Assembly: GCA_963840885.1 (NCBI GenBank)
Contig: CAWJAN010000006.1
Location: 46,601-110,600 of the forward strand
Direction of reading: 5' to 3'
Length of the DNA stretch: 64,000 nucleotides
DNA from: an uncultured bacterium
GTDB lineage: Bacteria > Patescibacteriota > Minisyncoccia > Phycocordibacterales > GWA1-40-21
The notes under the pieces: generated by a model
What the model saw: the letters and a program-made list of their open reading frames with translations, nothing else
Told to the model about the DNA's origin: nothing
Databases searched by the model: none
Shown: piece by piece, positions 250 through 22,690 of the stretch
Layout: the number at the start of each line of letters is the position of its first letter
How positions within the stretch are numbered: the stretch's first letter is position 1
Program-made: the position numbers and the translations under genes

Positions 250-1941
250 CTACGCGTCAATATCCCAATTGACTACGCCGTTTTTTACATCCATTACCGG
301 AGAAGAAAATACTTCCGTATACGATTCATCATCGTTTTTCTTGTCTATCTTTATGTGATACCTGCCTTTAGGGACAAGGATGTAATAGCGTCCGAATTTG
401 TCGGCGACTTTCTTTGCTATCGGAGATTCTTGTCCTTCCATGAATATGTTTATCAGCGCAAATGACAAAGGAAGTCCGTTTGATTTTTCCAGCAGAGTTC
501 CTGCTTTCTTTGTCTTGAATACGACAAAATTAAGTAGATACACCGTGACATATGTTCCGGCAATTATTAAATTATAAGGGGCGGGGACAAAGATAAGGCC
601 TATAAGAGCGACGAAAGCGCCTATGACAAAAAGCGTATCGGAAATCTTGGCCCAAAGAACAGTACCCGCTCTTGTAAATGAAGTCATATTGGCGCGGTTT
701 TTGGCAAATTCATTCCAGTCGAATTTAAGCGGATCCATAGGAATATTTTTTGTTATGATTTCTCCTTCCGCAGTTACGGTTATTTCATCCCCAAAATATA
801 GATCATTGTATACGGCATCGTATAAAGAACCCTTCATCTTCATGGACGGGAAACTGTAATTGGTTTTCTGACCAAGAATCTTATATTTTCCCGGCTTTAC
901 CAAAAATCCGTATCTGCCATCGAGATCTGTGATTGCCGTAGAAACTGTTTTGCCCGTTGCCGCATCGGTCAAGGAAACATAAGCCGGATCAAGAGGCCGT
1001 TTCGTAATTGCATCATAAACCGTTCCCCAGGGCCGCGCCTTCTTCTTGAGGCCGAATAATTCAACCATCAGATCGAAAATCCTGAACAGAATCATCCATA
1101 TATCGGAAAGGGCGGCTTGGCTTGTAAGGATTATTGTCAAGATTGAAGCTGTAACTCCTGCAATAATGCCTATTGTAGAAATTGTCTTGGTGACAATAGA
1201 GCCTATTTTTGTATTTACTATATTTTTAATCTGTCCGATTAATTGGCTTATGCCAGAAATCGAATTGGAAGTTCCTTGTGAAGGTTGAGACGGCGAAGAA
1301 GGCGGCGCTTGGGTTTGTGTGGATTGCGCCGGAGGCGCTGCCTGCTGATTCTGCCCGGATGCGGGCGACGAGGACTGGGATGTATTATTCGATCCGGAAG
1401 AAGATGGCTGCGTCACTACCGGCTGGGCTGGCGGCTGAACAGGACTTCCTACTCCGCCTCCGCCTGATGCCGGCGGAGTTGAAGTTGATGAAGTTGAAAC
1501 TGTCGGGCGCCAATCAGTTTCCACATCGCAATTGCTGCAATCGAATGTAAGTATTCCTATCAAAGTTCCGGTTGCCTGTCCGCTGAATTTTCCCGTCGAA
1601 GTATTTATAGAAACTCCGGAAAAGCTTATCCAGCCTATATTGTCTCCCCAAGCTGTTCCGGAAAGATTCCCTTCTCCGTCGTTAATTACTCCGCCATTTG
1701 CTGGCGCAAAATTAATCCAGCCGTAATTTTCCGACCAAGCCGAGCCTGTGACGGCTGAATCAGTAATGGATAATCCGCCATTTGACGGAGCGAAATTCAC
1801 CCATCCTATTTCATTGCTCCATGCGGCACCTTTTCCTGAAAGAATCGTTCCTGTCGACGCGCTAACGGCCATCGGCATTGCAAAAACGGCAAATAAGAAA
1901 AGTGATATATATGTCTTATAAAAAATTGTAAAACGATTCAT
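250..1941 (-). CDS. Secreted surface protein of 563 aa. It has an N-terminal signal peptide, tandem ~20-aa 'GxAWSxxxGWINFAP' repeats and a P/S/Q-rich linker. Its conserved C-terminal multi-TM anchor module is paralogous to the C-terminus of the 10763..15079 product.
   Basis: ORF track. The signal peptide reads MNRF..AVSAS. The repeats are visible as AWSNEIGWVNFAP, AWSENYGWINFAP and AWGDNIGWISFSG. The last ~300 aa are about 75% identical to the C-terminus of the 1438-aa protein, including KKK(A/Q)R(P/K)WGTVYD, TDLDGRYGFLV, NIPMDPLKFDWNEFAKNRANM and GRYYIL. Confidence 0.8.
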   Translation of the reverse strand: MNRFTIFYKTYISLFLFAVFAMPMAVSASTGTILSGKGAAWSNEIGWVNFAPSNGGLSITDSAVTGSAWSENYGWINFAPANGGVINDGEGNLSGTAWGDNIGWISFSGVSINTSTGKFSGQATGTLIGILTFDCSNCDVETDWRPTVSTSSTSTPPASGGGGVGSPVQPPAQPVVTQPSSSGSNNTSQSSSPASGQNQQAAPPAQSTQTQAPPSSPSQPSQGTSNSISGISQLIGQIKNIVNTKIGSIVTKTISTIGIIAGVTASILTIILTSQAALSDIWMILFRIFDLMVELFGLKKKARPWGTVYDAITKRPLDPAYVSLTDAATGKTVSTAITDLDGRYGFLVKPGKYKILGQKTNYSFPSMKMKGSLYDAVYNDLYFGDEITVTAEGEIITKNIPMDPLKFDWNEFAKNRANMTSFTRAGTVLWAKISDTLFVIGAFVALIGLIFVPAPYNLIIAGTYVTVYLLNFVVFKTKKAGTLLEKSNGLPLSFALINIFMEGQESPIAKKVADKFGRYYILVPKGRYHIKIDKKNDDESYTEVFSSPVMDVKNGVVNWDIDA

Positions 1942-1944
1942 ATT

Positions 1945-4900
1945 TTAATTTCCAGAATCCGTGCTTGATGCTGTCGTATCTGTCGATGTTGCATCCGATG
2001 ATGAGTCTGCCGTATCGGTTGATGTCGCATCCGACGATGTCGCCGTATCATCGGTAGATGTCGCAAGTGATGCATCATTTGAAGACGTATCCGAAGTCGA
2101 GGTTGATACGATCGAATCATCCGTACTTGTCGAAGCATCGTCTGAAGAAGTAGTTGAAGTTGAAGTGGATGTCGCTATAGTATCGCTGCTTGATGTGCTT
2201 GTGGTTGTTGTACTTGCATCGTCGGTGCTTGATGCATCAGACGACTGAATTTCCGTAGTATCGCTTGCTACTGAATCGGATGATGAAATTTGGATCGAAC
2301 TGGTTGATTGCAATTGGCAGGCGCCGACCACATTCGTAAGTATGCCATTGCTTATTATGATGCAATACGGCTGGCCAGTAATCTGATCATACATGGTAAT
2401 TCCTTCCGGACTCTGGCTCGTGCCAATCGCGATTCCGGTAAGATGCGCTAAGCCGTCTCCCACCGAAGATATAAACGATCCGATTTCCTTGACTGCATTG
2501 ACGAGTGCAGCAATGATTGGTCTGTCAGCAAGAGTGAGATATCCTCTGGAATCAGTTGCCACTGCTTCGGGTATTACTGATTGAACATTTTGTGCAGAAA
2601 AGCCGGTGTATTGATTTGTCATATCAAGGCCGCTTATGGCATTCCAATGATAGTTGATAGGAGTAAGTCCCTTAACCGCATCTAAGCCAAGAGTGAAATC
2701 ACCATCAATATTTTTCAATCGTTCATCGGAAGAAACTGTAACATTACCTAAAGAATCGGTTATGAGCGTTGCTCCGGCACTGCCTAAGGAAGAAAATTGC
2801 AAAGTTCCGGAAACTGTAAGTAAAGCCGACGGAGTTGAAGTGCCTAGGCCGACATTGCCATAAGTAATCAGTCCTGTATCTAAACTGAATACTCCATTAT
2901 CCAAAGTAATGCTTTTTGTTATGGAAGATGTGGCGGCTGGCGGAGTAAACATCCCGCTTGACGTAAACGTATGAACTGTATAAGCGCCATCATGAGTAAT
3001 GGTTCCTCCGGTTCCGTCTCCGCTCACTGGAGTCAAATATCTGATGATTACGACGCCAGAGCCTCCGGCTCCGCCGGTTCCATTCGCAGCCGCTCCTCCT
3101 CCGCCTCCGCCTCCTGTATTTGTGGTTGCATCGCTTCCGCTTGAAGCTCCTACATAACCTCCGGCTCCGCCTCCGCCATTTCCGCCGTCGCCTGCAGGGC
3201 TTGGACCGCCGTCATATCCGCCTCCTCCTCCGCCGCCGCCATAATATGTAGGGGTTCCTGAAATTGAACTTGATGTTCCGACTCCTCCTGCGGGATCATT
3301 TGAACCGGTGCTATCAGTTCCGGCTGCTCCGGCTCCTCCTCCTCCCGATCCTTGGGGATTGCCTCCTGGATTATCTCCTCCTTTATTTCCCTGGCCAGCG
3401 GTTCCCGCAGAACCTGTTCCTCCGGAACCGGCTTCACCTCCTCCAGAACCTCCGGTATTTCCTGAACCTCCATAACTGCCTCCGGCTCCTCCGCCAATTG
3501 CTGTAATGCTTAGAATTGAAGAATCATCTCCATTGTTTCCTGGACTGCCTCCATCACCGACGGTAATGGTCTGAGAGCCGACTATGTCAGTTGTCGTAGA
3601 GACGACTCCTCCCGCTCCTCCTCCGCCTCCGCCGTTTGATCCTCCACCTCCGCCTCCGGCAACCGCGAGAATATCAAATGATGAAATGAGTGATGAACTT
3701 GCAATTCCCGACAATCCTAAAGAAGAATTTGAAACGATATCGCCTGATGCATAAACATTTCCAGCAACATCAAGAGCTTCGGAAGGAGTTGAGGTTCCAA
3801 TTCCTACATTTCCAAGATCATAATAGATATCTGAGCTTGTTGAAGTCCACTGTGATGATCCGCCGCTTGACGTTGTCGCTACTACATTTCCGTTTGAATC
3901 GACAGCGAGCAAGGTGTTTGAGAGCCCTGAAATATTTAAAGATGGAGTTACTATTCCAGAATCAAAATTAAATAAACTACTAGATGATGTTAATGAAATA
4001 TACTTAGTATTAACAGCAGAACCTGCAGGCGCCACAAAAGTCCCGCTTGACGTAAACGTATGAACTGTATAAGCGCCATCATGAGTAATGGTTCCTCCGG
4101 TTCCGTCTCCGCTCACTGGAGTCAAATATCTGATGATTACGACGCCAGAGCCTCCGGCTCCGCCGGTTCCATTCGCAGCCGCTCCTCCTCCGCCTCCGCC
4201 TCCTGTATTTGTGGTTGCATCGCTTCCGCTTGAAGCTCCTACATAACCTCCGGCTCCGCCTCCGCCATTTCCGCCGTCGCCTGCAGGGCTTGGACCGCCG
4301 TCATATCCGCCTCCTCCTCCGCCGCCGCCATAATATGTAGGGGTTCCTGAAATTGAACTTGATGTTCCGACTCCTCCTGCGGGATCATTTGAACCGGTGC
4401 TATCAGTTCCGGCTGCTCCGGCTCCTCCTCCTCCCGATCCTTGGGGATTGCCTCCTGGATTATCTCCTCCTTTATTTCCCTGGCCAGCGGTTCCCGCAGA
4501 ACCTGTTCCTCCGGAACCGGCTTCACCTCCTCCAGAACCTCCGGTATTTCCTGAACCTCCATAACTGCCTCCGGCTCCTCCGCCAATTGCTGTAATGCTT
4601 AGAATTGAAGAATCATCTCCATTGTTTCCTGGACTGCCTCCATCACCGACGGTAATGGTCTGAGAGCCGACTATGTCAGTTGTCGTAGAGACGACTCCTC
4701 CCGCTCCTCCTCCGCCTCCGCCGTTTGATCCTCCACCTCCGCCTCCGGCAACGACAAGCACATCCACTTGAACAGATGATTGGCTTAGTTTTAAAAATTG
4801 ATCGGAAAATACCGGCATTCCATTCTTATAAAAATCTGCTGCATTAACAATGCCGTTTACATCAAGAGGATATGCTGGAGTTGAAGTTCCTACACCCACT

Positions 4901-7900
4901 GAACCATCTGATGAAACATAGAGTACAGATTGGCTTGAGGAAGAAACGAAGTTGGCAATGGCTCCTCCGTCTATAGCGTCAATTTCAAATTGAGCGGTTG
5001 GTATAGTCGTTCCTAATCCAATGTGTCCGTCCCCTCCTATAAAAAATAATGACTGACTCGATGATGAAACAAAATTGGCAATGTTATTGCTATCCTTTCC
5101 ATCGATTTCAAACATGCCGATGGGATTCATAGTGCCTATGCCGAAATTTCCCAATAAATATGATGAGGAAGATGAAGTGACCGCAAGAGAACCGTTCGTA
5201 GTAAAACCAATCGAATTAAAGAAATCATTGCCGAGATCGATAACGGTAATATCATTACTACCAAAAGCGCCAACGTATGCGTGATTGCCGAATACTGCGA
5301 GACCCTGTGGAGCAGCTCCGGCTCCTACCGAGTCAAGGGTAATTGGATTTGTAGAAGATGATATATCAACTACAGACATGGTTCCTGATTCAGCATTAAC
5401 TAAATAAGCATAATTGCCTGAGACAGAGATATCCTGAGGATTAATATCAACAGTAGTTGTGGCTATCTGTATTGGATTGGAGGAAGATGAGATGTCAAAA
5501 ACTGCCATTTGGCCTAATGTGGAATGGCTATCAATATACTGATACGACGTGTACAAATACGAACCTGATACAACCATGCAGCTAGGATTGGAACCTGCGG
5601 GAGTTGTGGTTGTGGCAACGAGTACCGGATTACTAGAAGATGAAATATCAAATGTAGAAATAGAATCTGGAATAGTGCCGCTGCCCAAGTTTCCCCAGTT
5701 AGCTTCATATAAATAATTATTGTCAGCAGACATGGCAAGACCGAAAGCCTGATTTCCCCCGTCTGAAACTTTGGTTATGAATACGGGATTTGTGCCGGAT
5801 GTGATATCAAAAACTGAAACGCTGCTGACTGTGGAATCCGATTCTGGAGGATTCTCTTGATTCGAAATATACAAGTAGGAATGGTTATTCTCTTTCTTTA
5901 TGACCATTTTTTGAGAATATCCGCCCTGTGTGCTAAAAGTCGTAATTGATTTTGGAGATTTTGGAGAAGATATGTCAATAACACTTACGGTGGAATCTCC
6001 GCTGTTAAGTACATATAAATAATTATTGATGACTTGTATATCTTGGGGAAAACTTCCAACGGCGATAGCGGCGACCTCAACGGGAGATGCTGTATTTGAG
6101 TTATCAAAAATAGATACGCTGCCTCCTTCATTGTTTGTCGCATATAAATACTTACCGTAAACCGTTACATCAGTAGGACCGGCCCAATATTCATAAAGAA
6201 AATTCTCGATGCCTGGCGTATTGCCTTCATCGTATACTATCGAGGTGCTTGCGGTATAAACCGCATGATTGGAGAAATTAGGATCATCGACAACCACTCT
6301 ATAGCCGTCAACACCGGAAACTGCATTCCAGGATACGTCGATTGCATATGGACCGCTTGAAGTGCTGGTAAATGGTATATCAACATAATTTTGGGAAGGA
6401 ACTTTTATGCCATTGATGAGCTTATAGCCATAAACTTTGAAATCATAATCTCCAATATACGTTAAGGTTCCCGTAGCTTCATCATCGAGAGCGTCACCGA
6501 TTCCTGTTGGGCTTGGAACAATATATGCTGTGCCGCCTTGTGCAGTACCTATATCAGCTGGCGACAAAGATGAGTAGTTGATTCCGGTAATATAATTGGA
6601 TATAGATCCTGAAATGGTTAAGCTTGCATCGGGTGTGGAAGTACCGATTCCGACATTGCCGACAGAGTAATAAATATTTGAGCTTGTTGAAGTCCACTGG
6701 GAGGATCCGCTCGGGGCTGTTGTTGCTGTCACATTTCCATTTGCGTCCACCGCAAGAAAAGTATTGGAAAGATTTGAAATATTCAAACCTTGTGTGGTTG
6801 AGGTACCAACAACCGATAGTGCAGTTGCAGGAGTTGTTGTACCTATGCCTAAATTTCCTGCAAAATATGAAATTGTATTTGTTCCTGAAACGGATATTGC
6901 GCCGTTTGAAAGTATTCCTCCAGACCCGACTGAAAGAGTTGTTCCTACATTCAAGAAATCCTGGATATTAATTCCCCTGCTTACATTTACAGTTCCAGCC
7001 TCAATCGAACCGGCTTCAAGACCTTCTGCTGTAATGCCGCCGATGTCTACAACTGATATGGAACCTGCCGCAAAAGTATCTGAATTGAATTCGCTATTGG
7101 CAGAATATACATAATTTCCTGAAACGGCGACGCCTTGGCACCAAGTGCTGGTTTTTATGTTTCCAATAAGGTATGGGGACAGCGGATTGGAAATATTTAT
7201 GACTGATATGGAATTATCTTGCTGATTTGCAGTGTAGGCATAATCTCCGGAAACTGTGATATCTATAGGTGCAGCGCCGGAACCAACTGTCGTAGTGGCA
7301 ACAGGGAAAGGAGCATACGGATTTGAAATATCTACGACAGACATGGAATCGCCTTGGAAATTTGCCACGTATGCATAGCTGCCGGAAACAGAAATACTTG
7401 TCGGGACATATCCCACAGTCGTAGTGGCAATTTCCACCGGAGAATGAGGATTTGAAATATCCACTACTGAAATGGTGGTGCCGCGCACGCCGGTCAAATC
7501 GCCGCCGTTTGTAACATACGCATAGTTGCCGGAAATTGCTATGCCGGCAGGGCCGAATCCTACTGTCGTAGTAGCAATAATCGATGGAGCATAAGGATTT
7601 GAAATATCAAATACAGAAATAGTATTTCCATCGCCACTTAAGCCGCCGTCGGTCACGTATGCGTAGTGTCCGGAAATTGCTATGCCTGCCGGATATGTTC
7701 CGTATACCGATGATGTTGCAATAAGCTTTGGATCTGATGGATTGGCGACATCCATGACAGAGATATCGTGATCAAATTCACCATTATTTACTACATAAAC
7801 ATAGTGTCCTGATTTTGCGAGGCCTATAGATGAGGCGCCACCTACTGTCGTAGTAGCAATCTGCCGAGGAGCGGCAGGATTTGAAATGTCGACGACAGCG

Positions 7901-10686
7901 AATGGATTGGCTCCGGGTTCAAGTGGATTCGTACCTGGATCACCATTTGCGCGATTATCATAATTGCTCGAAACATAAGCATAATGACCGTCTATAATAA
8001 TATTTTGCGGATATAATCCGACAGATGTGGTTGCAATCTGAGAAATGTGATTAAAATCGCTATAGCTTGAGATTGCTCCGTTTACGGTCAGGACATTTTC
8101 CGGAGTCGTGGTGCCGATGCCGACATTTCCGCTTGAAGCTATGTACAAAGCGGAACGGCTGGAAGGCGATATAAAATTAGCAATATCGCTTGTCGATGAA
8201 CCGAAAACCTCCAAGCTAGCAGGCTGATTTATGGCGCTTGTATTTACAGACATGAAATTATTGTTCGGGCCAATGGCTGCAAAATAGTTTCCGCCGAAAG
8301 CTATGGCGTTCAACGGCGTAGATTCTGTAAAACTTTTTGTTGTCCAATCATTGCCATTTAAAGATTCACCGAATTCTTCGGGATTTCCGACTGCTATAAA
8401 CGTGCCGTTGCCATATGCAATGGAACTCCAAGAATCAATTGTAGGTGAATTGCCTAGAGACCAATTTATTCCGTCAGAAGAAGTGGCAAACCTGTTATGG
8501 CCTAAGGAATCGCTTCCTATAAGAATAAACATATTGTTGCCATAAACAATGGCCGTTCCACTGTTCATGGGTGATGGCACGTTTTCTGCAGTCCAGTTTA
8601 TTCCATCTGAAGACTCAATCGTATGCGAGTTATTGTTAGTTCCGACAAAAATTCCATTTGCATAAATGAAAGATGACCAGTTGGCTGCTGATGTTGGAAG
8701 ACTGCTTGTGGCCCAGTTAATACCGTCCGAAGAAGTGGCGAATTGATCGCCGCCCAGGGCGACAAACATGCCGTTGCCGTATGCAATTTGCCAAGCCCAA
8801 GTAAAATACGACGGATGCGGAGGCGGCATAGTTCCGCCAGTCCAGCTTATACCATCAGAAGAAACCGCTACATGATCACCGTTTGTACCAGCAGCTATAA
8901 ATTTACCATTCCCGTATATTAACGTTTCCCAATAATCTGATTCCGGCATGGTTCCTGATGTCCAATTTATTCCGTCGGAAGAGATTGCCAAATTGCTGCC
9001 ATTGCCGGTCGCTACAAATTTGCCATTTCCGTAGGCAATAGCGAGCCAATCGCTATTGGAGACAGGGAGAGTTCCCGTAGCAAGATTGCTTCCTTCAATA
9101 GGCTCGTGAGAATTGCCTGCTTTCACTCCGCCGGAATCATAATAAATATTCGAGCCTGAGGTCGTCCACTGTGAAAGAGACGAGCTTGCGGTAAAAACAT
9201 TCCCATTTGAATCCACACTAAGTAAGCCGCTTGAAATACCGGGAAGGGTTAATCCGAATAATGTGGTTGTTCCGGTAACGGATAGTGCTGACTCAGGTGT
9301 TGTAGTGCCGATACCTATGCGGCCGTCAGCGCCAATATAGAATACTGAAGCGGATGTCGATGAGAAAAAACTGGCGATTGTGCTTGTTCCTTGCCCGAAT
9401 ACCTGGAATGTATATGCGCCAGATGATGTTGTGGTGGATGTTGTGGTAGTGGAAATCCTTACAACAGAAATATCGCTGTCATCATCATTTGCGGTATAGG
9501 CATAATCGCCGGAAATAGCGATATCGAGCGGAAAACTGCCTACTGAAACTGTCGCACTCACTGATGGAGATGAAGGGCTGGAAATATCCAAGACTGAAAT
9601 CGTATCATCGCTACCATTCACAAGATAGGCATGCGTGCCGGAAATAGCAATGCCGCGGGGATGATTTCCAACGTTCACATCGGCAATATCGCTCGGCGAA
9701 AGCGGATTTGATATATTGATGACAGAAATCGCATCACTATTAACATCGGCTACATAGGCATAATTGCCGGAAATCGCTATGCCGTATGGGCTAGATCCCC
9801 CAGGAAGCACTGCTGTAGTGACCTCAACCGGAGCAAGCGGATTTGAAATATCTACAACGGAAACATCATCATCATCGGAGTTGGTCACATAGGCATAGTT
9901 GCCGGAAACAGCAACATCAAGAGGTGAACCGCCGACCGAAGTCGTAGCAACTTGAATTGGAGCAAGCGGATTTGAAATATCTATAACAGACATTATACTA
10001 TCGGACTCATCAGCAATATAAGCGTAATTACCGGATATTGCGATGCCTAGAGCCGTATCATAATTATTCGGATCATTACCAACAGTCGTCGTAGCGACTT
10101 GGACAGGAGCTGAAGGATTTGAAACATCAATGACAGAAAGATTGCTTGCGCCATTTGTAACATATGCATAGTTGCCGGAAACTGCGACATAGTATGAGTA
10201 ATCACCTGAATCACCTACGCTCGTCGTGGCTGTCTCGATTGGAGAGAGAGGATTTGAAACATCAAAAATGGAAAATACCGCATTGCAATTATCGGCAACA
10301 TAAACATGGTCACCTGAAGCCGCAATCCCCCATGGGCATGCATTGCCATTGTCTGTCTGAGCCGTGGTGTTTTCAACAGGAGACGCAATATAATCTACTG
10401 TCGTGGTAGAGCCGGTAGTAAAAAATGAATTCGTCGATGTGCCGACAGCAAAGTTTCCTACATTGAAAAGATTCTGATTATTTAAATCGATTGTAGATGT
10501 AGCTCCTGTAAAAGGTATAAATGTGGAAAAAAGGCTCACGCCGCAGTTCGATGTTCCCATCACGCAATCCGGATTCAGCGTTTCACCAGGAGTATAAACC
10601 GAAGCAGAAGCAAAAGTAAAAAATGCAAATATGAAATATATTGCAAATAATACAGAAGAAGTGAATTTTCTAAAGGAAATATTCAT
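1945..10686 (-). CDS. Giant secreted repeat protein of 2913 aa. It contains several blocks of LVIVD-type beta-propeller repeats, tail-fibre-like 'NVGIGTSTP' repeats and a duplicated Gly-rich module. A C-terminal intramolecular-chaperone/autoprocessing domain (peptidase S74-like) is followed by an S/T/D-rich tail.
   Basis: ORF track with an N-terminal signal peptide. Recurring LVIVD signature YAYV(A/T)...SVxDISNPxxPxxxATTxVG appears more than 20 times. 'LAVDxNGNVxATTxxSGSSQWTSTSSNIYYxxGNVGIGTSTP' appears at least three times. The C-terminal segment SDERLKNIDGDFTLGLD..INYHWN..TGFSAQNVQSVIPEAV..PIIAALVNAVKEI matches the endosialidase/tailspike chaperone-domain consensus (SDxRLKxNI...Y.W...GfiAQEV..V.PE.V...ALv.AiKEL). 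Confidence 0.9.
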   Translation of the reverse strand: MNISFRKFTSSVLFAIYFIFAFFTFASASVYTPGETLNPDCVMGTSNCGVSLFSTFIPFTGATSTIDLNNQNLFNVGNFAVGTSTNSFFTTGSTTTVDYIASPVENTTAQTDNGNACPWGIAASGDHVYVADNCNAVFSIFDVSNPLSPIETATTSVGDSGDYSYYVAVSGNYAYVTNGASNLSVIDVSNPSAPVQVATTTVGNDPNNYDTALGIAISGNYAYIADESDSIMSVIDISNPLAPIQVATTSVGGSPLDVAVSGNYAYVTNSDDDDVSVVDISNPLAPVEVTTAVLPGGSSPYGIAISGNYAYVADVNSDAISVINISNPLSPSDIADVNVGNHPRGIAISGTHAYLVNGSDDTISVLDISSPSSPSVSATVSVGSFPLDIAISGDYAYTANDDDSDISVVRISTTTTSTTTSSGAYTFQVFGQGTSTIASFFSSTSASVFYIGADGRIGIGTTTPESALSVTGTTTLFGLTLPGISSGLLSVDSNGNVFTASSSLSQWTTSGSNIYYDSGGVKAGNSHEPIEGSNLATGTLPVSNSDWLAIAYGNGKFVATGNGSNLAISSDGINWTSGTMPESDYWETLIYGNGKFIAAGTNGDHVAVSSDGISWTGGTMPPPHPSYFTWAWQIAYGNGMFVALGGDQFATSSDGINWATSSLPTSAANWSSFIYANGIFVGTNNNSHTIESSDGINWTAENVPSPMNSGTAIVYGNNMFILIGSDSLGHNRFATSSDGINWSLGNSPTIDSWSSIAYGNGTFIAVGNPEEFGESLNGNDWTTKSFTESTPLNAIAFGGNYFAAIGPNNNFMSVNTSAINQPASLEVFGSSTSDIANFISPSSRSALYIASSGNVGIGTTTPENVLTVNGAISSYSDFNHISQIATTSVGLYPQNIIIDGHYAYVSSNYDNRANGDPGTNPLEPGANPFAVVDISNPAAPRQIATTTVGGASSIGLAKSGHYVYVVNNGEFDHDISVMDVANPSDPKLIATSSVYGTYPAGIAISGHYAYVTDGGLSGDGNTISVFDISNPYAPSIIATTTVGFGPAGIAISGNYAYVTNGGDLTGVRGTTISVVDISNPHSPVEIATTTVGYVPTSISVSGSYAYVANFQGDSMSVVDISNPYAPFPVATTTVGSGAAPIDITVSGDYAYTANQQDNSISVINISNPLSPYLIGNIKTSTWCQGVAVSGNYVYSANSEFNSDTFAAGSISVVDIGGITAEGLEAGSIEAGTVNVSRGINIQDFLNVGTTLSVGSGGILSNGAISVSGTNTISYFAGNLGIGTTTPATALSVVGTSTTQGLNISNLSNTFLAVDANGNVTATTAPSGSSQWTSTSSNIYYSVGNVGIGTSTPDASLTISGSISNYITGINYSSLSPADIGTAQGGTAYIVPSPTGIGDALDDEATGTLTYIGDYDFKVYGYKLINGIKVPSQNYVDIPFTSTSSGPYAIDVSWNAVSGVDGYRVVVDDPNFSNHAVYTASTSIVYDEGNTPGIENFLYEYWAGPTDVTVYGKYLYATNNEGGSVSIFDNSNTASPVEVAAIAVGSFPQDIQVINNYLYVLNSGDSTVSVIDISSPKSPKSITTFSTQGGYSQKMVIKKENNHSYLYISNQENPPESDSTVSSVSVFDITSGTNPVFITKVSDGGNQAFGLAMSADNNYLYEANWGNLGSGTIPDSISTFDISSSSNPVLVATTTTPAGSNPSCMVVSGSYLYTSYQYIDSHSTLGQMAVFDISSSSNPIQIATTTVDINPQDISVSGNYAYLVNAESGTMSVVDISSSTNPITLDSVGAGAAPQGLAVFGNHAYVGAFGSNDITVIDLGNDFFNSIGFTTNGSLAVTSSSSSYLLGNFGIGTMNPIGMFEIDGKDSNNIANFVSSSSQSLFFIGGDGHIGLGTTIPTAQFEIDAIDGGAIANFVSSSSQSVLYVSSDGSVGVGTSTPAYPLDVNGIVNAADFYKNGMPVFSDQFLKLSQSSVQVDVLVVAGGGGGGSNGGGGGGAGGVVSTTTDIVGSQTITVGDGGSPGNNGDDSSILSITAIGGGAGGSYGGSGNTGGSGGGEAGSGGTGSAGTAGQGNKGGDNPGGNPQGSGGGGAGAAGTDSTGSNDPAGGVGTSSSISGTPTYYGGGGGGGGYDGGPSPAGDGGNGGGGAGGYVGASSGSDATTNTGGGGGGGAAANGTGGAGGSGVVIIRYLTPVSGDGTGGTITHDGAYTVHTFTSSGTFVAPAGSAVNTKYISLTSSSSLFNFDSGIVTPSLNISGLSNTLLAVDSNGNVVATTSSGGSSQWTSTSSDIYYDLGNVGIGTSTPSEALDVAGNVYASGDIVSNSSLGLSGIASSSLISSFDILAVAGGGGGGSNGGGGGGAGGVVSTTTDIVGSQTITVGDGGSPGNNGDDSSILSITAIGGGAGGSYGGSGNTGGSGGGEAGSGGTGSAGTAGQGNKGGDNPGGNPQGSGGGGAGAAGTDSTGSNDPAGGVGTSSSISGTPTYYGGGGGGGGYDGGPSPAGDGGNGGGGAGGYVGASSGSDATTNTGGGGGGGAAANGTGGAGGSGVVIIRYLTPVSGDGTGGTITHDGAYTVHTFTSSGMFTPPAATSSITKSITLDNGVFSLDTGLITYGNVGLGTSTPSALLTVSGTLQFSSLGSAGATLITDSLGNVTVSSDERLKNIDGDFTLGLDAVKGLTPINYHWNAISGLDMTNQYTGFSAQNVQSVIPEAVATDSRGYLTLADRPIIAALVNAVKEIGSFISSVGDGLAHLTGIAIGTSQSPEGITMYDQITGQPYCIIISNGILTNVVGACQLQSTSSIQISSSDSVASDTTEIQSSDASSTDDASTTTTSTSSSDTIATSTSTSTTSSDDASTSTDDSIVSTSTSDTSSNDASLATSTDDTATSSDATSTDTADSSSDATSTDTTASSTDSGN
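2941..4763. repeat. Tandem direct duplication inside the giant gene. The period is 1089 bp, and about 734 bp are nucleotide-identical (2941..3674 and 4030..4763).
   Basis: Identical sequence blocks are visible, for example ggttcctccggttccgtctccgctcactggagtcaaatatctgatgattacgacgcc at 2999 and 4088. Two byte-identical spurious plus-strand ORFs sit at 3150..3497 and 4239..4586, offset by 1089 bp. The encoded identical segment is about 245 aa, running from AGGGGGGSNGG to GVVIIRYLTPVSGDGTGGTITHDGAYTVHTFTSSG. Confidence 0.9.
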
Positions 10687-10703
10687 GACGTATTTATTGG
10701 ATA

Positions 10704-10709
10704 TATTAT
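10704..10709 (-). promoter_or_regulatory. Candidate -10 element (TATAAT) about 20 nt upstream of the giant gene ATG.
   Basis: The minus-strand sequence upstream of the ATG at 10686 reads ...ttattgcTATAATatatccaataaatacgtcATG. No convincing -35 box or Shine-Dalgarno sequence is present. Confidence 0.25.
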
Positions 10710-10762
10710 AGCAATAAATAAAAAATTTTCACTAACCAATGAATGGAGAAATTATTTATTCC

Positions 10763-13700
10763 TTACACCACCAAATTCTCATTCACAATCCCTCCTTTCA
10801 GGTCTACAACGGGAGATTTGAAGGCTTCCGTGTAAGATTCATCATCGTTCTTCCTATCGATCTTCAGATAGTATCTTCCTTGGGGGAGAAGGATGTAATA
10901 TCTGCCGTATTTGTCTGCGATTTTCTTGGCGATAGGAGAATCATCCTGGCCTTCCCTGTAGATCTTGATTACTGCAAATGAGAGCGGCAGGCCTGTTTTG
11001 GAATCCTTGATCGTTCCAGCTTTCTTCGTCCTGAAGACGACATAGTTCAGGAGATACGCGATGACATAGAGGCCGGCAACGATGAGGTTGTAAGGCGCTG
11101 GAGCGAAGATGAGGGCGATGAGCGCGACGAAAGCGCCGATGACGAAGAGCAGATCATATATCCTTGACCAGATTACTGTGGAACCTTTGGTGAAAGTATT
11201 CATGTTTGCCCTGTTCTTGGCGAACTCGTTCCAGTCGAATTTCAAAGGATCCATCGGGATATTCTTGGTGATGATTTCTCCGAGAGATCCGATGACGAGC
11301 TCTTCTCCGTGATAGAGGTCGTTGTAAACGTCGTCGAATGTGCCGAGAATCTTCTTTGACGGGAAAGAATAGTTGGTCTTCTGGGCCATGATCCTGTACT
11401 TGCCGGGCATTACGAGGAATCCGTATCTGCCGTCGAGGTCCGTGATTGCGGTGGCTGCGGTTTTGTTGGTCGCGATATCGATGAGCGTCACGTAAGCCGG
11501 ATCGAGAGGACGCTTCGTTACGGAATCATATACTGTTCCCCATTTTCTCTGCTTTTTCTTCAGGCCTAAGGATTCGGATAGCAAGCCGAAGAATCTTGCC
11601 GGTATGGTCCAGGTTTCAGACCAGGTCAGGGGGTTAACGAAAAGAAGCGCGGCTGAATATGCGATGCCTCCGATGACAAGGCCGACGGTCGAGATTACTT
11701 TGACCACTATGGAACCGACAGGATCGTTTACGGTAGAGCTTGCCATTCTGATTATTGGATTTAATGTATCCGATATTCCCTTGATGGCATTGTTGAAAGA
11801 TTGAGAATTCGATACTGGTGCCGTTGGTGCGGGAGTTGGAGTCGGAGTTGGCGCAGGTGCTGGAGTTGGCAAAGGTGTTGGCACAGGAGTTGGCAAAGGT
11901 GTTGGCGTAGGGGTTGGTGTCGGAGGTTCAGGAGGAACGACTGGAAGAGGTTCGGTCTGGCATCCGAGGATGTCATTGGCTTTCTTCCTTGAATAGTATC
12001 CGAAGTTTCCTGTTCCGCTTGAAAGTCCGTATGGAGAGAGGATGTCGCTTGCATATGCGTTCTGGAAATTGGTGACTGAATCTGCAGTTACTGTTCCGTA
12101 ATATTCCATCTCGGAACCTAGTGTTTCCGGACCGCTTGTGGCCTGATCGAATCCGTTGGTGTTCAGGAATATCTGGAGATCCTTAACGTCAGGATCAGAT
12201 GTTCCCGGCATGAGGTTCTTGGTGAAGCAGAATCCTTTAGGCAATGTCGGAGGGATGATTACTGGAGGGGTTGAGGTTGCAGGCGTGGTTGTTGCGGGGG
12301 TGGTGGTTGGAACGATAGGAGGTTCGGTTGAACCGCCGGATGGGCCTGTATATGGAGGCAAAACCGGTGTAGGCAGAGTCGTGGTTGCTCTTCTTCCGTG
12401 TGGACGATGGGGAAACAGCCAGTTGACGTCTGAGCCTCCGTCTACACAGCCGTTAGTGCAGTCGAAGGCGTCAGCGGAAAGATTGGTTGAGCCTGAGACA
12501 TCTAAAAATGAAAATGAAGATGTGCCTGAACCGGTTTGCAGTATATTGAAAGGAACTATAGCTGGTGGAGAAAACTTTTGAACATCGCCGCCATTATGCC
12601 CGTAGTCGGCAACATATATATTGTTATTCGAATCAACCGTTAATTGCGTAGGATTGGAAAATTGTCCATCGCTAGTCGTGCCGAATGTGCCGAATTGGCT
12701 AATCAATGAAAGATCCGAATCAAGCTTAACGACATTATGATTGCCTGAATCGGATACATATAAATATCCGTTTGAATCTACGGCTACGCCGTATGGTGAG
12801 CTGACATCTGTATATGAAGAAACGTAAGAAAGGTCGGATACATTAAATTTTACGATTCGATTATGCCCAGTATCGGCAAGATAAATAAAAGTTCCCGCCG
12901 GATCAACGGCGAGCGAACCGCTAGTCGAATTAAAGCTGAAACCTTGGCTGTTGGCGGAAGTGGTTGATGCAATAAGGTTAAAATTTGAATCCAATTTCAA
13001 TATTCCGCCGGTTGGGCCGTAATTGCTGGTGACATATATATTGCCGGATGAATCAACGGCAATGCCTCCGGAAATACCGGTGCTCTGAACTGATGGAATC
13101 GTAGTGATATCCGGGGAAGATATCAAAAAATTACCGCTGGGATCAAATTCCATAATTTTATTACTCGATCCGTTCGCTACGTACAAATTATCCGAAATAT
13201 CAGTGGATAATTGCACCGGATCAGAAAGCGAACTTGTCGCAATGGTGTTTATCAAATTGCCGGAACTGTCGAATTCTTTTATATAATTTCCAAAATAATC
13301 CGAAACATAGATATTATCTGCCGAATCATGGGCTACTCCAAAGGTTAAGCTAAGCGATGATAACAATTCGCTATTAAATTGAGGAATGGAAGCCCCTCCA
13401 GTATTTATTGAAAGAAGATTGCCAGAGCTTCCGGACAGAGAAATGCTGCCGGATATGGTTGTCGTGGCAGTCTGATCGAATAAAAGCGATGAGCCCGATG
13501 ATGAAAACTTGGTCAAATTAGGAAATGTGTTTGAACCGGAAATGGTTTGGGAGGATGTTCCTGTAAAATTAACCGTGCCTGAAGAGCTTGCGCTCGTATC
13601 TTCAAGTATTCCGCCTGTATTCGACCAATTGCCATAAACATTCAGTATATATCCGTTTAAATCAAGAGTTCCTCCGTCTACTAAAACAAGACTGCGAATA

Positions 13701-15079
13701 TTTTCATCCTGATAAAGTGTGACTGTTCCGGTGCTTATCGTCGCATCACTCGTCTCATCTGTCGATGTCGATATAAAATTTATTGCTCCCCCACCTGTTA
13801 TAAGCGTTCCGCCGGTGTTTATAAAATTCCACCAATGGCCGCTAAAATTTAATGTGTAAGATGACAGGTCTAGCGTTCCTCCGGATGCCAAAATAAGGCT
13901 ATTAACATTTTGATCTTGGGTCAGGTCGATAGTCCCAGTATTTATAGTTGCGCTGTCGGAAGATCCAGGAAAATCAATGCCTTCAACGGGAACATACCCT
14001 GATGGAAGCACGAGTCCGTTATAGGTGGTCGAAGCGGTGCCGTCCGGATTAACGACGGTTATATTATTGTTATGAGCATCGGTAACATAAATATATCCTG
14101 ATGTCGTGAGAGCCATACCAAAAGGCTGAGAAAATCCGAATGAAGAATAAGTTGTCGAAGCGGTGCCGTCCGGATTGTAGACCACGATACGATGCGATCC
14201 ATTGGATTCCAATGCGTATATATCTCCCGATGAGGAGAGTGCCACGTTTTCAGGGACGAAAAGTCCGCTGCCGTTATAGCTTGTCGAAGCGGTGCCGTCC
14301 GGATTTAAGATATCAATGCGGTTATTCGAAGCATCGGCAACATATATTTCTCCTGAAGGCGAAAAAGTTATGCCGAAAGGATATATCGGAGCCAGGCTTC
14401 CTCCGTCATAGCTTGTGGATGCTGTGCCGTCCGGATTTAAGATGACAATTCTGTTATTGCCTTCATCGGATACATAAATATCTCCGGATGGGGAAACTAT
14501 TACGTATCTAATATTGCTAAAAGGGGCCAGGCTTCCGCCGTTATAGCTTGTCGAAGCGGTGCCGTCCGGATTTAGGACAACGATTCTATTATTTGAAGCG
14601 TCTACTATGTACATTTCTCCTGACGGTGAGAGATTTATTCCTACGGGACCGATTGGAGCCAAGCTTCCGCCGTTATAGCTTGTGGATGCTGTGCCGTCCT
14701 GGTTCAGGACTACTATTCTATTATGTCCGTTATCAGCTATGTATATTTCTCCAGAGGTAGATGAAATCGCCAAATTATAAGGAGCGCTAAAACCAATTAA
14801 TCCTCCGTTTGTTCCCCAGGTAGTGGTGCTATTCCAGTCACCGCCTGAGCTTGTGTTGAAGGCGGTTGAAAAATTATTGCTGGAATTTGAAACGAATATC
14901 TTTTTAAAATTTTCGTTAGAAAATAAAAAAACTGCTGAAATTATTAAAATTATGAGTAGGAATATTGAAATAAATCCTGCTGGTTTCGCCTTTATTTCTG
15001 TAAATTTCATTTGGTGGATTAGGATTATTATTGCTACGGTGTTTATTATAATAGATTTTATAATAAAGACACTAATCAC
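10763..15079 (-). CDS. Large secreted surface protein of 1438 aa. It has two blocks of NHL-type beta-propeller repeats, a PT-rich linker and a putative peptidoglycan-binding-like segment. The conserved C-terminal multi-TM anchor module is shared with the 250..1941 product.
   Basis: NHL repeat signature SPSGE(I/M)Y(I/V)(A/S)DxxNNRIV(V/I)LNPDGTASTSY appears at least six times, and a second block reads IYVSDYFGNYIKEFDSSGN / LYVADTGHNRIVKF / LYVSDSGNHNVVKL. The linker is PTPTPTPTPLPTPVPTPLPTPAPAPTPTPTP. 'DVKDLQIFLNTNGF...YYGTVTADSVTNFQNAYASDIL' resembles a PG_binding_1 domain. The C-terminal module aligns with the 563-aa protein. Confidence 0.9.
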   Translation of the reverse strand: MISVFIIKSIIINTVAIIILIHQMKFTEIKAKPAGFISIFLLIILIISAVFLFSNENFKKIFVSNSSNNFSTAFNTSSGGDWNSTTTWGTNGGLIGFSAPYNLAISSTSGEIYIADNGHNRIVVLNQDGTASTSYNGGSLAPIGPVGINLSPSGEMYIVDASNNRIVVLNPDGTASTSYNGGSLAPFSNIRYVIVSPSGDIYVSDEGNNRIVILNPDGTASTSYDGGSLAPIYPFGITFSPSGEIYVADASNNRIDILNPDGTASTSYNGSGLFVPENVALSSSGDIYALESNGSHRIVVYNPDGTASTTYSSFGFSQPFGMALTTSGYIYVTDAHNNNITVVNPDGTASTTYNGLVLPSGYVPVEGIDFPGSSDSATINTGTIDLTQDQNVNSLILASGGTLDLSSYTLNFSGHWWNFINTGGTLITGGGAINFISTSTDETSDATISTGTVTLYQDENIRSLVLVDGGTLDLNGYILNVYGNWSNTGGILEDTSASSSGTVNFTGTSSQTISGSNTFPNLTKFSSSGSSLLFDQTATTTISGSISLSGSSGNLLSINTGGASIPQFNSELLSSLSLTFGVAHDSADNIYVSDYFGNYIKEFDSSGNLINTIATSSLSDPVQLSTDISDNLYVANGSSNKIMEFDPSGNFLISSPDITTIPSVQSTGISGGIAVDSSGNIYVTSNYGPTGGILKLDSNFNLIASTTSANSQGFSFNSTSGSLAVDPAGTFIYLADTGHNRIVKFNVSDLSYVSSYTDVSSPYGVAVDSNGYLYVSDSGNHNVVKLDSDLSLISQFGTFGTTSDGQFSNPTQLTVDSNNNIYVADYGHNGGDVQKFSPPAIVPFNILQTGSGTSSFSFLDVSGSTNLSADAFDCTNGCVDGGSDVNWLFPHRPHGRRATTTLPTPVLPPYTGPSGGSTEPPIVPTTTPATTTPATSTPPVIIPPTLPKGFCFTKNLMPGTSDPDVKDLQIFLNTNGFDQATSGPETLGSEMEYYGTVTADSVTNFQNAYASDILSPYGLSSGTGNFGYYSRKKANDILGCQTEPLPVVPPEPPTPTPTPTPLPTPVPTPLPTPAPAPTPTPTPAPTAPVSNSQSFNNAIKGISDTLNPIIRMASSTVNDPVGSIVVKVISTVGLVIGGIAYSAALLFVNPLTWSETWTIPARFFGLLSESLGLKKKQRKWGTVYDSVTKRPLDPAYVTLIDIATNKTAATAITDLDGRYGFLVMPGKYRIMAQKTNYSFPSKKILGTFDDVYNDLYHGEELVIGSLGEIITKNIPMDPLKFDWNEFAKNRANMNTFTKGSTVIWSRIYDLLFVIGAFVALIALIFAPAPYNLIVAGLYVIAYLLNYVVFRTKKAGTIKDSKTGLPLSFAVIKIYREGQDDSPIAKKIADKYGRYYILLPQGRYYLKIDRKNDDESYTEAFKSPVVDLKGGIVNENLVV

Positions 15080-21105: not shown

Positions 21106-21645
21106 TTATTTCTTATCGTAAACAAGCGTTATGGAAAAATTGGCATTAGTATTATTTATAAGATACGATACCGGCAGATCGACGTTCGTGAAAGTTCCAT
21201 CATCCACTAGAGCTTTATTGAAAGACGTGAGATCGTCTCTTGTGGACGCTATTCCTGATATTGTTATTTTCTGCGAATTTCCCGCGGCAGCTGATATGGA
21301 GAAAGAAGATATGGATATATTATTATTTTTTAAAGAAATTATTTTATCTATAATGCCGCTATCGGAAATATTTGCCGTATCTCTCTCCAGAATATCCGCC
21401 ATACTATTCAGCTTTTTGACCAGCGCAACGACATCGTTATTGCTTTTGGAGGCCAGCGACTCGGTTATATCAAGCTGGTTTGCCACCGTCTTGCTTTCAT
21501 ATTTAGAAAAGATAGCAGAAGGTATGAAAAGAAGTATGAGGAGGAACAGGCCGAGAAAAACCGCCACGAGAAGAAATATGAGGCCTCTTAATATATATTC
21601 GAGCGTTACCTGTCTCTTATTTTTTTGTGGCAGAAAATCAAGCAT
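21106..21645 (-). CDS. PilN-like type IV pilus assembly protein (putative).
   Basis: N-terminal MLDFLPQKNKRQ (INLLP-like motif) followed by a single TM helix and a periplasmic domain. It overlaps the pilM-like gene by 8 bp, indicating an operon. Confidence 0.5.
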   Translation of the reverse strand: MLDFLPQKNKRQVTLEYILRGLIFLLVAVFLGLFLLILLFIPSAIFSKYESKTVANQLDITESLASKSNNDVVALVKKLNSMADILERDTANISDSGIIDKIISLKNNNISISSFSISAAAGNSQKITISGIASTRDDLTSFNKALVDDGTFTNVDLPVSYLINNTNANFSITLVYDKK

Positions 21646-22690
21646 TTTTGTTGATATTTTTTAATTTCATGTAAGGCATGGCCAGGCCTACGGCAGTTGC
21701 AAAATTAAGCGATTCTTTGAAATCTATGGGGGGAAGATAATTGTTTATGTCAAAAGTGTTGGACCATACATTTGCCGGTACTATTTCCATATCTATATTC
21801 TGCCCTACGTGGTTCAAAAAACCGGGAAGATCGGCCGAATCGCCGCACGCTATAATCTTGCGTATCGCGTCATCTCCTCCTATTGATTTTGACTTCACAT
21901 AATCTATGAATTTTTCAAGTTCATCCTTTATTATTGAGTATATATTAAGCGAGGATGCCATTGAATTTTTATTCTGATTGGAAGGCGAGACTCCAGCTTT
22001 TTCCAGGCTTTCATCTATGTAGCTTTTTCCTATATTCAGTACCGATGTAAAACGCACGGTATTTCCGTCAACAAAGGAAAAAATAGTCGAACTATATTTG
22101 ACATTCAATATTACATAGCTTTTCTTGTCGTCTTTCGGTATTACCGATCTTGCCGTCATCCTAGATTCTATTTCAAAATTCACCGGAAAAAATCCTGAAG
22201 CTACTATGGCATCTGAATAACTTTCTATCGTGGTTTTAGGTATGACCGATACGCTTGCGAATATGCCGCCGTCCTGCTTGTCTTCTCCTATTATTTCATA
22301 TTCGAAAAGAACCTCGCCGGCTTTGAACGGAACGTTTTCTTCAAGATGGAACTCAAGGGCCTGCCTGATTTCGCCCTTGTTCATTTTCGGCAATCTTATT
22401 TCAAAAATATAGGTCTTCTGTTCCGGAACGGAAACGTTCAGGGATTCTACTGAAATCTTGTTTTTCAGCTCAGAAAAAACTTTTGTGAACGCATCCTTGT
22501 TCAGTATGTCTCCGTCTTTCATGGTATTTTCCGGAAAGACTATTTCTCCGAAGTTTTTTACCGATAATCTTCCGTGTTCATTGAAAAATTCCAAAAATCT
22601 CACCGAGTGGTTTGAAATTTCAACTCCTGCCACCCTTATGGAAAGATAATCTAGTGGATAGGCAATCTTTTTAAAAAAATCAAGCTTCAT
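21638..22690 (-). CDS. PilM-like type IV pilus assembly ATPase-fold (actin-like) protein (putative).
   Basis: 350 aa. The N-terminus (LDYLSIRVAGVEISNHSVRF) resembles the PilM/FtsA-like fold, and the gene sits upstream of the PilN/O-like genes. Confidence 0.5.
   Translation of the reverse strand: MKLDFFKKIAYPLDYLSIRVAGVEISNHSVRFLEFFNEHGRLSVKNFGEIVFPENTMKDGDILNKDAFTKVFSELKNKISVESLNVSVPEQKTYIFEIRLPKMNKGEIRQALEFHLEENVPFKAGEVLFEYEIIGEDKQDGGIFASVSVIPKTTIESYSDAIVASGFFPVNFEIESRMTARSVIPKDDKKSYVILNVKYSSTIFSFVDGNTVRFTSVLNIGKSYIDESLEKAGVSPSNQNKNSMASSLNIYSIIKDELEKFIDYVKSKSIGGDDAIRKIIACGDSADLPGFLNHVGQNIDMEIVPANVWSNTFDINNYLPPIDFKESLNFATAVGLAMPYMKLKNINKNA

Follow-up and report, generated by a model that had tools for sequence, protein, structure and literature searches.

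Why do two exported proteins with unrelated heads, encoded on either side of a giant fiber gene in an uncultured member of the Patescibacteriota, end in the same module? The locus that raises this question occupies positions 250-15079 of a stretch of 64,000 nucleotides (contig CAWJAN010000006.1, assembly GCA_963840885.1; hereafter the window), where the list of open reading frames (ORFs) contains three consecutive minus-strand ORFs, P1, P2, and P3, each with an N-terminal hydrophobic segment (residues 4-34, 7-32, and 6-37, respectively). The gaps between them measure 76 nt (P3-P2) and 3 nt (P2-P1). An initial annotation, made from the sequence alone, had described three adjacent giant secreted proteins of 563, 2913, and 1438 amino acids (aa), each starting with a signal peptide and having a distinct ectodomain. 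The ORFs and their sizes stand, but P1 with its 563 aa is not giant; the N-terminal hydrophobic segment is present in all three, but that of P3 may be an uncleaved signal anchor rather than a cleaved peptide. The ectodomains do differ: Pfam finds LVIVD in P2 and NHL in P3 and has no family for the GW(I/V)NF repeats of P1, the GW domain being without a Pfam model.

250-1941, minus strand: P1, 563 aa; signal peptide, GW beta-barrel head, low-complexity linker, C-terminal module
1945-10686, minus strand: P2, 2913 aa; exported fiber or giant surface protein, itself lacking a membrane anchor
10763-15079 from GTG (1438 aa) or 10763-15013 from ATG (1416 aa), minus strand: P3; NHL-head paralogue with the same module

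The answer begins with the shared ending, which belongs to a large, uncharacterized family that is a common membrane base for many different surface heads. P1 and P3 indeed end in the same module, as had been proposed: their C-termini align by BLASTP over 346 aa with 63% identity and 78% positives (E = 2e-149), and the module core (311 aa) is 65.5% identical, so that the measured identity is approximately 63-66% and not the 75% given at first. All the sequence motifs quoted for the module are present. Instead of three transmembrane (TM) helices, however, it contains four hydrophobic segments, the second of which (TMb) is amphipathic, with an invariant Arg. The elements follow one another as an amphipathic pre-helix, TMa, TMb, KKKxRPWG, a first beta-sandwich (sandwich 1), the FDWNEFAK helix, the TMc/TMd hairpin, KxKK, and sandwich 2.

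253-1281, minus strand: module copy of P1, aa 221-563, from BLASTP against P3 and family searches
1123-1185, minus strand: TMa of P1, aa 253-273; weakly hydrophobic, rich in Gly, Ala, Ser, and Thr
1048-1101, minus strand: TMb of P1, aa 281-298; amphipathic, followed by KKKxRPWG
718-1029, minus strand: sandwich 1 of P1, aa 305-408; transthyretin-like, with a Pfam CarboxypepD_reg match
517-645, minus strand: helical hairpin of P1 (TMc aa 433-452, PxPYN loop, TMd aa 458-475); strongly hydrophobic
253-516, minus strand: sandwich 2 of P1, aa 476-563; internal duplicate of sandwich 1
10766-11806, minus strand: module copy of P3, from BLASTP against P1
11636-11698, minus strand: TMa of P3
11561-11614, minus strand: TMb of P3
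From 11542, minus strand: sandwich 1 of P3
11102-11152, minus strand: TMc of P3
11033-11086, minus strand: TMd of P3
10766-11032, minus strand: sandwich 2 of P3

In the AlphaFold2 model of P1 (120 homologues in the input; mean predicted local distance difference test score, pLDDT, of 77), the helices at residues 227-295 are of low to middling confidence. They are followed by a sandwich at 320-400 (pLDDT ~90), a short helix at 409-416, a long helical hairpin at 425-474, and a second sandwich at 481-563 (pLDDT 93-98); both sandwiches are predicted with high confidence to adopt 7-8-stranded prealbumin-like folds. The carboxypeptidase-regulatory-like beta segment noticed earlier was correctly recognized, sandwich 1 of P1 being a CarboxypepD_reg member (PF13620, 44.9 bits against a cut-off of 32.3), but it is one of two: both beta segments are homologous transthyretin-like sandwiches. 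The Pfam model spans only about 55 of the 330 residues of the module, all in sandwich 1; the P3 sandwich, ~66% identical to that of P1 across the domain, reaches just 21.5 bits with PF13715 (cut-off 32.2). An hhalign comparison of sandwich 1 with sandwich 2 gives a probability of 98.3% (E = 1.4e-14), and the alignment extends collinearly into the helix pairs ahead of them, although the helix pairs compared alone have no significant similarity. Because the sandwiches are homologous and the alignment is collinear through the helices, the module is, judging from its sequence, a tandem duplication of a unit consisting of two helices, a basic Lys-rich flank, and a transthyretin-like sandwich. In 66% of the family, Cys replaces I521 of P1 (GRYYCLVP), and this is the only recurrent Cys of the module.

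The remark that the anchor is not a named family also holds, since no Pfam or NCBIfam model covers the whole module; Foldseek against the Protein Data Bank (PDB) retrieves single transthyretin-like (TTL) domains only (transthyretin, carboxypeptidase D TTL) and no whole-module structure. P1 has no NCBIfam match, and that of P3 concerns the head only (a weak NHL-region match to ScyE_fam, 81.8 bits with a cut-off of 80, the rest being below threshold). Neither protein has an LPXTG-like motif in the 40 residues before TMa, an NCBIfam sorting-signal match, or an NCBIfam or Pfam match to other C-terminal sorting domains (PEP-CTERM, T9SS CTD, GlyGly-CTERM).

The first module search returned 283 matches, the 120 listed being all of 600 aa or less. 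An exhaustive search gave at least 2147 representatives at E <= 1e-30 (clusters at 50% identity), and 497 module loci were confirmed in species-representative genomes. With the family profile, P1 scores 622 bits and the 1438-aa protein (presumably P3) 534 bits; both are members, matching the family end to end and collinearly at the C-terminus of an exported protein. Few sources are named among the listed matches, and these are Nomurabacteria, Taylorbacteria, Paceibacterota, and Patescibacteria, with the proteins labeled 'hypothetical' or 'carboxypeptidase regulatory-like domain-containing'. As all named sources are Patescibacteria, the family appears to be confined to this group (Parcubacteria/Paceibacteria-type metagenome-assembled genomes, MAGs), in agreement with the early guess of an episymbiotic or small-genome lineage. 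No description of the module family was found in the literature on Patescibacteria, Paceibacteria, Parcubacteria, or the candidate phyla radiation (CPR), and a 2026 review of the Minisyncoccota discusses only type IV pili for host contact (PMC13293708).

A search for other proteins ending in the module, suggested together with the original observation, found it C-terminal behind varied exported heads. Throughout the 85 module loci analyzed in detail and in 150 library representatives, it is C-terminal, with a median of 2 residues between it and the end of the protein; of the 84 complete module ORFs, 82 start with a hydrophobic signal. The smallest head has 468 aa and the largest 3040 aa. The GW barrel is the head in 64 of the 85 loci, and the others carry NHL propellers, PG-binding, FN3, cohesin, TIG, Laminin_G_3, DUF285, Big_2, Flg_new_2, or GLUG domains. 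Apparently stand-alone modules (~315-330 aa) were rejected as assembly artifacts: a run of N splits an NHL-head gene in L084, and the module of L085 lies at a contig end.

The supposition of a swappable cassette is supported: besides standing behind unrelated exported heads, it yields a tree in which the head types are interleaved. Paralogous modules within a genome are closer to each other than to modules with the same head elsewhere in four of the four genomes that contributed two paralogues:

P1/P3 (same genome): module identity 0.65; best elsewhere 0.61 or less
L022/L023 (same genome): module identity 0.79; best elsewhere 0.74
L026/L008 (same genome): module identity 0.82; best elsewhere 0.73
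L040/L075 (same genome): module identity 0.60; best elsewhere 0.47 or less

The NHL heads of P3, L017, L022, and L026 are homologous (31-49% identity over 500-1300 aa). The genome-wise likeness of the modules, together with the homology of the heads, implies either that heads move onto a resident module or that the modules within a cell co-evolve. Recent gene conversion between P1 and P3 was considered as the source of their likeness and rejected, because their nucleotide identity is 0.55-0.78 per 20-codon window without any high-identity tract and third-position identity at conserved residues is 0.43. Either alternative fits a swappable cassette; the second, in which the modules might co-evolve through, for instance, a shared partner or hetero-oligomerization, hints that they do more than tether. 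Passive anchoring is probably not the whole role of the cassette, since it is far more conserved than the heads, its Lys/Arg (K/R) distribution and composition are cytoplasm-like, and within-genome paralogues co-vary.

The initial view of modular surface proteins was largely sound with respect to modularity and lineage, but the recurrent pairing of genes such as P1 and P2 had gone unseen. Of the 64 GW-head loci, 30 encode a Peptidase_S74 (S74) protein on the same strand at a distance of at most 600 nt, compared with 1 of the 21 loci with other heads (Fisher p = 4e-4), and this single exception is P3 itself. The gap between the S74 ORF and the anchor gene is 70 nt or less for 21 of the 35 S74 ORFs; the fiber gene lies upstream or downstream of the anchor gene, depending on the locus. 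Most S74 fiber proteins adjoining GW-module genes carry the motif Y.PGETL[DN]P.C.PG..NC directly after the signal peptide. The order of a short M50 (site-2) peptidase, an optional S74 fiber, the GW anchor, rpsL, rpsG, and fusA is conserved in many genomes (e.g., L002 6721-12743 and ~13 others), from which the GW anchor can be recognized as a conserved chromosomal gene; the window does not share this synteny. As GW-anchor genes recurrently adjoin S74 fiber genes, the GW barrel of P1 is probably a dock for P2, that is, a candidate membrane socket for an anchorless fiber.

In five more GW loci (L027, L030, L036, L038, and L039), a different giant protein ends 6-82 nt upstream of the anchor gene. 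Members of this second class (877 to >3311 aa) have no detectable S74 domain and share a C-terminus of the form ...SWKTDEPSTSVVYYEEGSG...ESIVDVIFKNFNESFNFINNVK; they may be an alternative cargo of the same anchor.

The fiber itself, P2, has an AxA-type cleavage site in its signal region, as does P1, and only its N-terminal hydrophobic segment scores above 1.6, so no anchor is found beyond the signal peptide. Pfam recognizes eleven LVIVD repeats (2.4e-76), two Gly_rich_2 domains, and Peptidase_S74 at residues 2653-2709.

10543-10596, minus strand: N-terminal motif YTPGETLNPDCVMGTSNC of P2, directly after the signal peptide
2953-4761, minus strand: tandem duplication with two Gly_rich_2 domains, aa 1976-2215 (4042-4761) and aa 2339-2578 (2953-3672)
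2560-2730, minus strand: Peptidase_S74 intramolecular-chaperone domain, aa 2653-2709, starting S2653-DERL-K2658
1948-2559, minus strand: C-terminal remainder, including an acidic tail rich in Ser, Thr, and Asp

The duplication has a period of 363 aa (1089 nt), with 238 of 240 aa identical and 98% nucleotide identity over 300 nt; such a near-perfect repeat suggests that the fiber expanded very recently or that its repeats are prone to recombination. P2 belongs to the Peptidase_S74 family (PF13884, 38.2 bits with a cut-off of 22, profile positions 1-57), and at profile position 1 it has the pattern of a Ser-Lys dyad, with the Lys five residues after the Ser (S2653-D-E-R-L-K2658). We take this S-x4-K spacing to be the catalytic dyad, as in endosialidases. 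If the S74 domain self-cleaves, the C-terminal remainder is predicted to be released. A PDB sequence search with the C-terminus of P2 found no solved S74 relative.

P1, a 100% match to database protein P0001, is the canonical member with the default architecture of the family, in which the head is a small four-repeat GW barrel.

1858-1941, minus strand: signal peptide of P1, aa 1-28, AxA-type; inferred cleavage site between ...AVSA and S
1492-1857, minus strand: head of P1, aa 29-150; four GW(I/V)NF repeats and a conserved Cys pair
1264-1491, minus strand: linker of P1, aa 151-226; rich in Ser, Thr, Pro, and Gln, 0% charged, pLDDT <50

The adhesin-like giant that had been seen in P1 thus gives way to a conserved head of approximately 120 aa, predicted to form a small closed up-and-down beta-barrel (residues 30-145 are all-beta in the AlphaFold2 model, pLDDT ~96). 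Inspection of the sequence speaks against a membrane-inserting GW barrel: the strands are short and Gly-rich and show no alternating hydrophobic face. The linker presumably spans the wall, and the fraction of Pro, Thr, Ser, Gly, Gln, Asn, and Ala in such linkers has a family-wide median of 0.60. The GW barrel also occurs in stand-alone secreted proteins of ~143-211 aa (proteins P0252-P0272; L086 4808-5443; L087 8001-8441). Some of these come from MAGs labeled Desulfobacterota, and two of the genes adjoin Lcl_C-domain proteins and mobile-element genes.

P3 is best regarded as a derived paralogue, in which, as we infer, the barrel was replaced by NHL propellers and a PG-binding domain.

12590-14812 (approximate), minus strand: ectodomain of P3; two NHL beta-propeller regions flanking a beta-helix-like middle
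12053-12196, minus strand: PG_binding_1-like domain of P3, followed by a Pro/Thr-rich linker

Pfam matches in the head are NHL (1.7e-41), Vgb_lyase, and SGL. The PG_binding_1 match (PF01471, E = 2.1e-4) lies just under the cut-off, at 21.8 bits against 23, and the same segment recurs ahead of the module in L007, L008, L011, L012, L020, and L026. The true start of P3 is probably ATG 15013 (1416 aa), because the GTG extension (15013-15079) contains a TATAAT-like box.

On which side of the membrane do the sandwiches lie? Both are somewhat more likely to be cytoplasmic than not. The sandwich-facing flanks carry 11.7-13.6 K/R family-wide, versus 0.2 in the two short inter-helix loops. The sandwiches are charged (24-33% of residues in P1 and P3; family medians 25-26%, with K/R at 11-16%), and the corresponding values are 28% for ORFs without TM segments, 13% for heads (K/R 3%), and 3-11% for clearly exported domains in the window. 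In 54 of the 85 modules, the sandwiches contain exactly one Cys, which is unpaired, whereas the head has a conserved pair. TMb is preceded by D/E280 (96%) and contains R287 (99%) in the family alignment; in P1 and P3, it carries a charged stripe (R287, D290/G290, E294), and its summed insertion energy (from a hydrophobicity scale) is never zero or below in any family member. On sequence grounds, the positive-inside count, the composition, the unpaired Cys, and the energy of TMb all favor cytoplasmic sandwiches.

The whole reading that we favor, with a confidence slightly above even, is that of a Patescibacteria-specific membrane module which holds exported heads, with P1 as a socket for P2 and the sandwiches in the cytoplasm. 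Heads exported through Sec would be held at the cytoplasmic membrane by the ~330-aa module, with a low-complexity linker spanning the wall in between. With the head outside, only one of TMa and TMb would cross the membrane, leaving both sandwiches on the cytoplasmic face, where their conserved surfaces might bind each other or a conserved partner. The small GW barrel of P1 would be the membrane socket for P2; the latter is probably trimeric, removing its S74 chaperone domain by self-cleavage, and its conserved Cys motif at the N-terminus may be what contacts P1. P3 would then display a different head, NHL propellers with a PG-binding domain, on the same base.

Several observations weigh against this reading. 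About half of the GW-type loci have no adjoining fiber gene, and the pairing may partly be inherited synteny (M50 peptidase, fiber, anchor, rpsL) and not independent evidence. Self-cleavage and trimerization of P2 are deduced solely from Pfam membership and the S-x4-K motif. With regard to topology, CarboxypepD_reg and transthyretin-like domains are usually extracytoplasmic, this fold being typical of proteins that are secreted or displayed on the surface; the median hydropathy of TMa equals that of TMb; and composition alone is not decisive, because exported proteins in these genomes are 9-29% charged. Moreover, the two halves of the module align in the same order through the helices as well as the sandwich, and duplicated hairpins imply an even number of crossings, so that, the head being certainly exported, the sandwiches would remain outside with it.

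Apart from composition, these topological points are the strength of the foremost alternative, unlikely as we judge it to be, in which the four segments form two membrane-spanning hairpins and the sandwiches constitute an extracytoplasmic pedestal on the outer face beside the head. The Lys-rich flanks would then bind anionic lipids or wall polymers, and the module would be a purely structural anchor. Such an arrangement entails an extreme violation of the positive-inside rule (~13.6 K/R outside versus 0.2 inside), and it would expose sandwiches that are charged like cytoplasmic proteins, unlike all clearly exported domains of the window (3-11%), and that in most modules have one unpaired Cys. 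It also requires the insertion of TMb, a segment with an acidic residue besides its invariant Arg for which insertion is never predicted, and it conflicts with an in-frame fusion in which a histidine kinase directly follows sandwich 2.

A more ambitious proposal, rather improbable in our estimate but with a real chance of being true, sees in the module a transmembrane coupler: a duplicated cytoplasmic transthyretin-like platform that co-evolves per genome, oligomerizes, holds interchangeable heads or S74 fibers, and recruits soluble partners such as sensor-less histidine kinases. If so, contact between episymbiont and host would be both mechanically anchored and signaled to the cytoplasm. More doubtful still is a transmembrane receptor for two-component signaling, whose head or docked fiber senses contact and whose sandwiches relay it to a sensor-less soluble histidine kinase. 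Its appeal derives from gene neighborhoods: in 6 of 85 loci (L004, L005, L061, L069 at 9590-9700, L071, and L072), the module gene is followed on its own strand, at no more than 50 nt, by a histidine kinase gene, and a convergent 232-aa kinase without TM or sensor domain is found in L050, L067, and L079. Most loci, however, have no kinase nearby, and there is none in the 64-kb window. The fusion mentioned above, from a groundwater contig, joins a GW head, the module, HisKA, and HATPase_c in one 943-aa ORF (P0144; L088 962-3793), but it is a singleton, with no second fused protein among 1518 matches. It also keeps the kinase's own Met 24 codons past the usual stop position, for which reason it may reflect a recent stop-codon loss or a sequencing error. 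As HisKA and HATPase_c are necessarily cytoplasmic, P0144 supports the cytoplasmic topology weakly; being a singleton with a retained kinase start codon, it was rejected as proof of it. Some of the adjoining downstream histidine kinases are without TM or sensor domain.

Regulated intramembrane proteolysis, in which an upstream site-2 (M50) protease would cut the module helices and free a cytoplasmic fragment, seems very improbable. In at least 13 loci, an M50 gene does immediately precede the anchor gene or the fiber-anchor pair, but this adjacency may be mere conserved gene order beside the str operon, and no M50 gene is found near the cluster in the window. After such a cut, the TMc/TMd hairpin would still hold the sandwiches in place; as for orientation, the first crossing would be type I, and site-2 protease substrates are typically type II. 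That the three genes are a prophage or tailocin tail-fiber cassette is scarcely credible: P2 has a Peptidase_S74 domain, weak matches to PHROG tail fibers, and strong matches to two PHROGs of unknown function, but the module has no tblastn match in 50,697 phage records and none in IMG/VR contigs, P1 and P3 match no PHROG family, the neighbors are housekeeping genes and tRNAs, and the P1 orthologue elsewhere stands in conserved synteny with the M50 peptidase and the rpsL-rpsG-fusA operon.

The rest of the window is housekeeping in character (11 tRNA genes, ribosomal protein L19, RecJ, RNase Y, and PilM/PilN), and likely ATP-synthase genes lie at 52.9-57.0 kb, judged from ORF translations alone. 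The PilN-like and PilM genes of type IV pilus assembly (21106-22690) are on the same strand, ~6 kb from the cluster. Downstream of P1, positions 1-249 of the minus strand apparently hold the start of a class I fructose-bisphosphate aldolase, as seen by inspection of the translation. Within the cluster, a promoter-like site (GTGAAA-16-TGnTATAAT, 10705-10732) lies in the P3-P2 gap, for which reason P2 and P1 are possibly transcribed apart from P3; promoter and terminator scans gave counts not above shuffled expectation.

The rest of the window also encodes several exported proteins poor in charged residues, and the exported proteome of the organism differs in composition from its cytoplasmic proteome. 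Signal-peptide proteins with 3-11% charged residues are encoded at 24509-25318, 25431-27548, 32958-34598, and 44463-44834; the set comprises a DUF5666 protein, a 705-aa protein with PG_binding_1 and T2SS-T3SS_pil_N, an ice-binding-like DUF7507 protein, and a small lipoprotein-like ORF. A 211-aa signal-peptide protein (44856-45491) has a sub-threshold match to OMP_b-brl (24.0 bits, cut-off 28.7), which is odd, as this lineage is generally held to lack an outer membrane.

Most lineage-specific proteins of Paceibacteria-type Patescibacteria are without annotation. If the favored reading is true, the module ending is a handle for listing the surface-displayed proteins in these genomes, P1 and P2 are a candidate fiber-plus-socket attachment apparatus, and the family is a case of module swapping combined with within-genome co-variation. 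Should the sandwiches be cytoplasmic, the transthyretin-like fold would be serving an unusual purpose here, and signals might pass by this route from the outside inward.

How, finally, does the module compare with known systems? Carboxypeptidase regulatory-like and TTL domains (PF13620, PF13715; 5aq0, transthyretin) share the sandwich fold and are retrieved by Foldseek. The module differs from them in having two such domains, each preceded by two membrane helices and a Lys-rich flank and each probably cytoplasmic, and in its own invariant motifs (WGTVYD, TDLDGRYGF, and NIPMDPxxFDWNEFAK); we know of no characterized protein with this arrangement of two sandwiches and helix pairs. For the head of P1, the close systems that can be named include the small 8-stranded beta-barrels of Slam-dependent surface lipoproteins (HpuA, TbpB, fHbp, and hemophilin) and other up-and-down barrels. 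P2 resembles phage endosialidases and tail-fiber S74 proteins in its S-x4-K at the domain start, its long repetitive beta-rich segments, and the lack of an anchor of its own, and, like phage fibers, it would need an N-terminal docking partner. Unlike them, it is chromosomal, Sec-exported, 2913 aa long, and built with LVIVD propellers, and its candidate partner is a cell-membrane protein rather than a baseplate. The gliding proteins Gli123, Gli349, and Gli521 of Mycoplasma mobile are likewise very large surface proteins held by TM segments and encoded in a tandem cluster, in a wall-reduced, minimal bacterium; their likeness to P1-P3 would be purely organizational. With LPXTG/sortase anchors, the module shares an exported head, a low-complexity wall-spanning linker, a helix running into KKKxR, and reuse behind unrelated heads. 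It has no sorting motif and gives no sign of cleavage or transfer to the wall, unlike LPXTG proteins, and instead of a short basic tail a conserved two-domain multi-helix unit of ~260-265 residues (~265 after the basic cluster of P1 and P3) completes the protein. The module is best classed with the C-terminal membrane anchors of surface proteins, set apart by its duplicated helix-sandwich design and its genetic linkage to S74 fibers.

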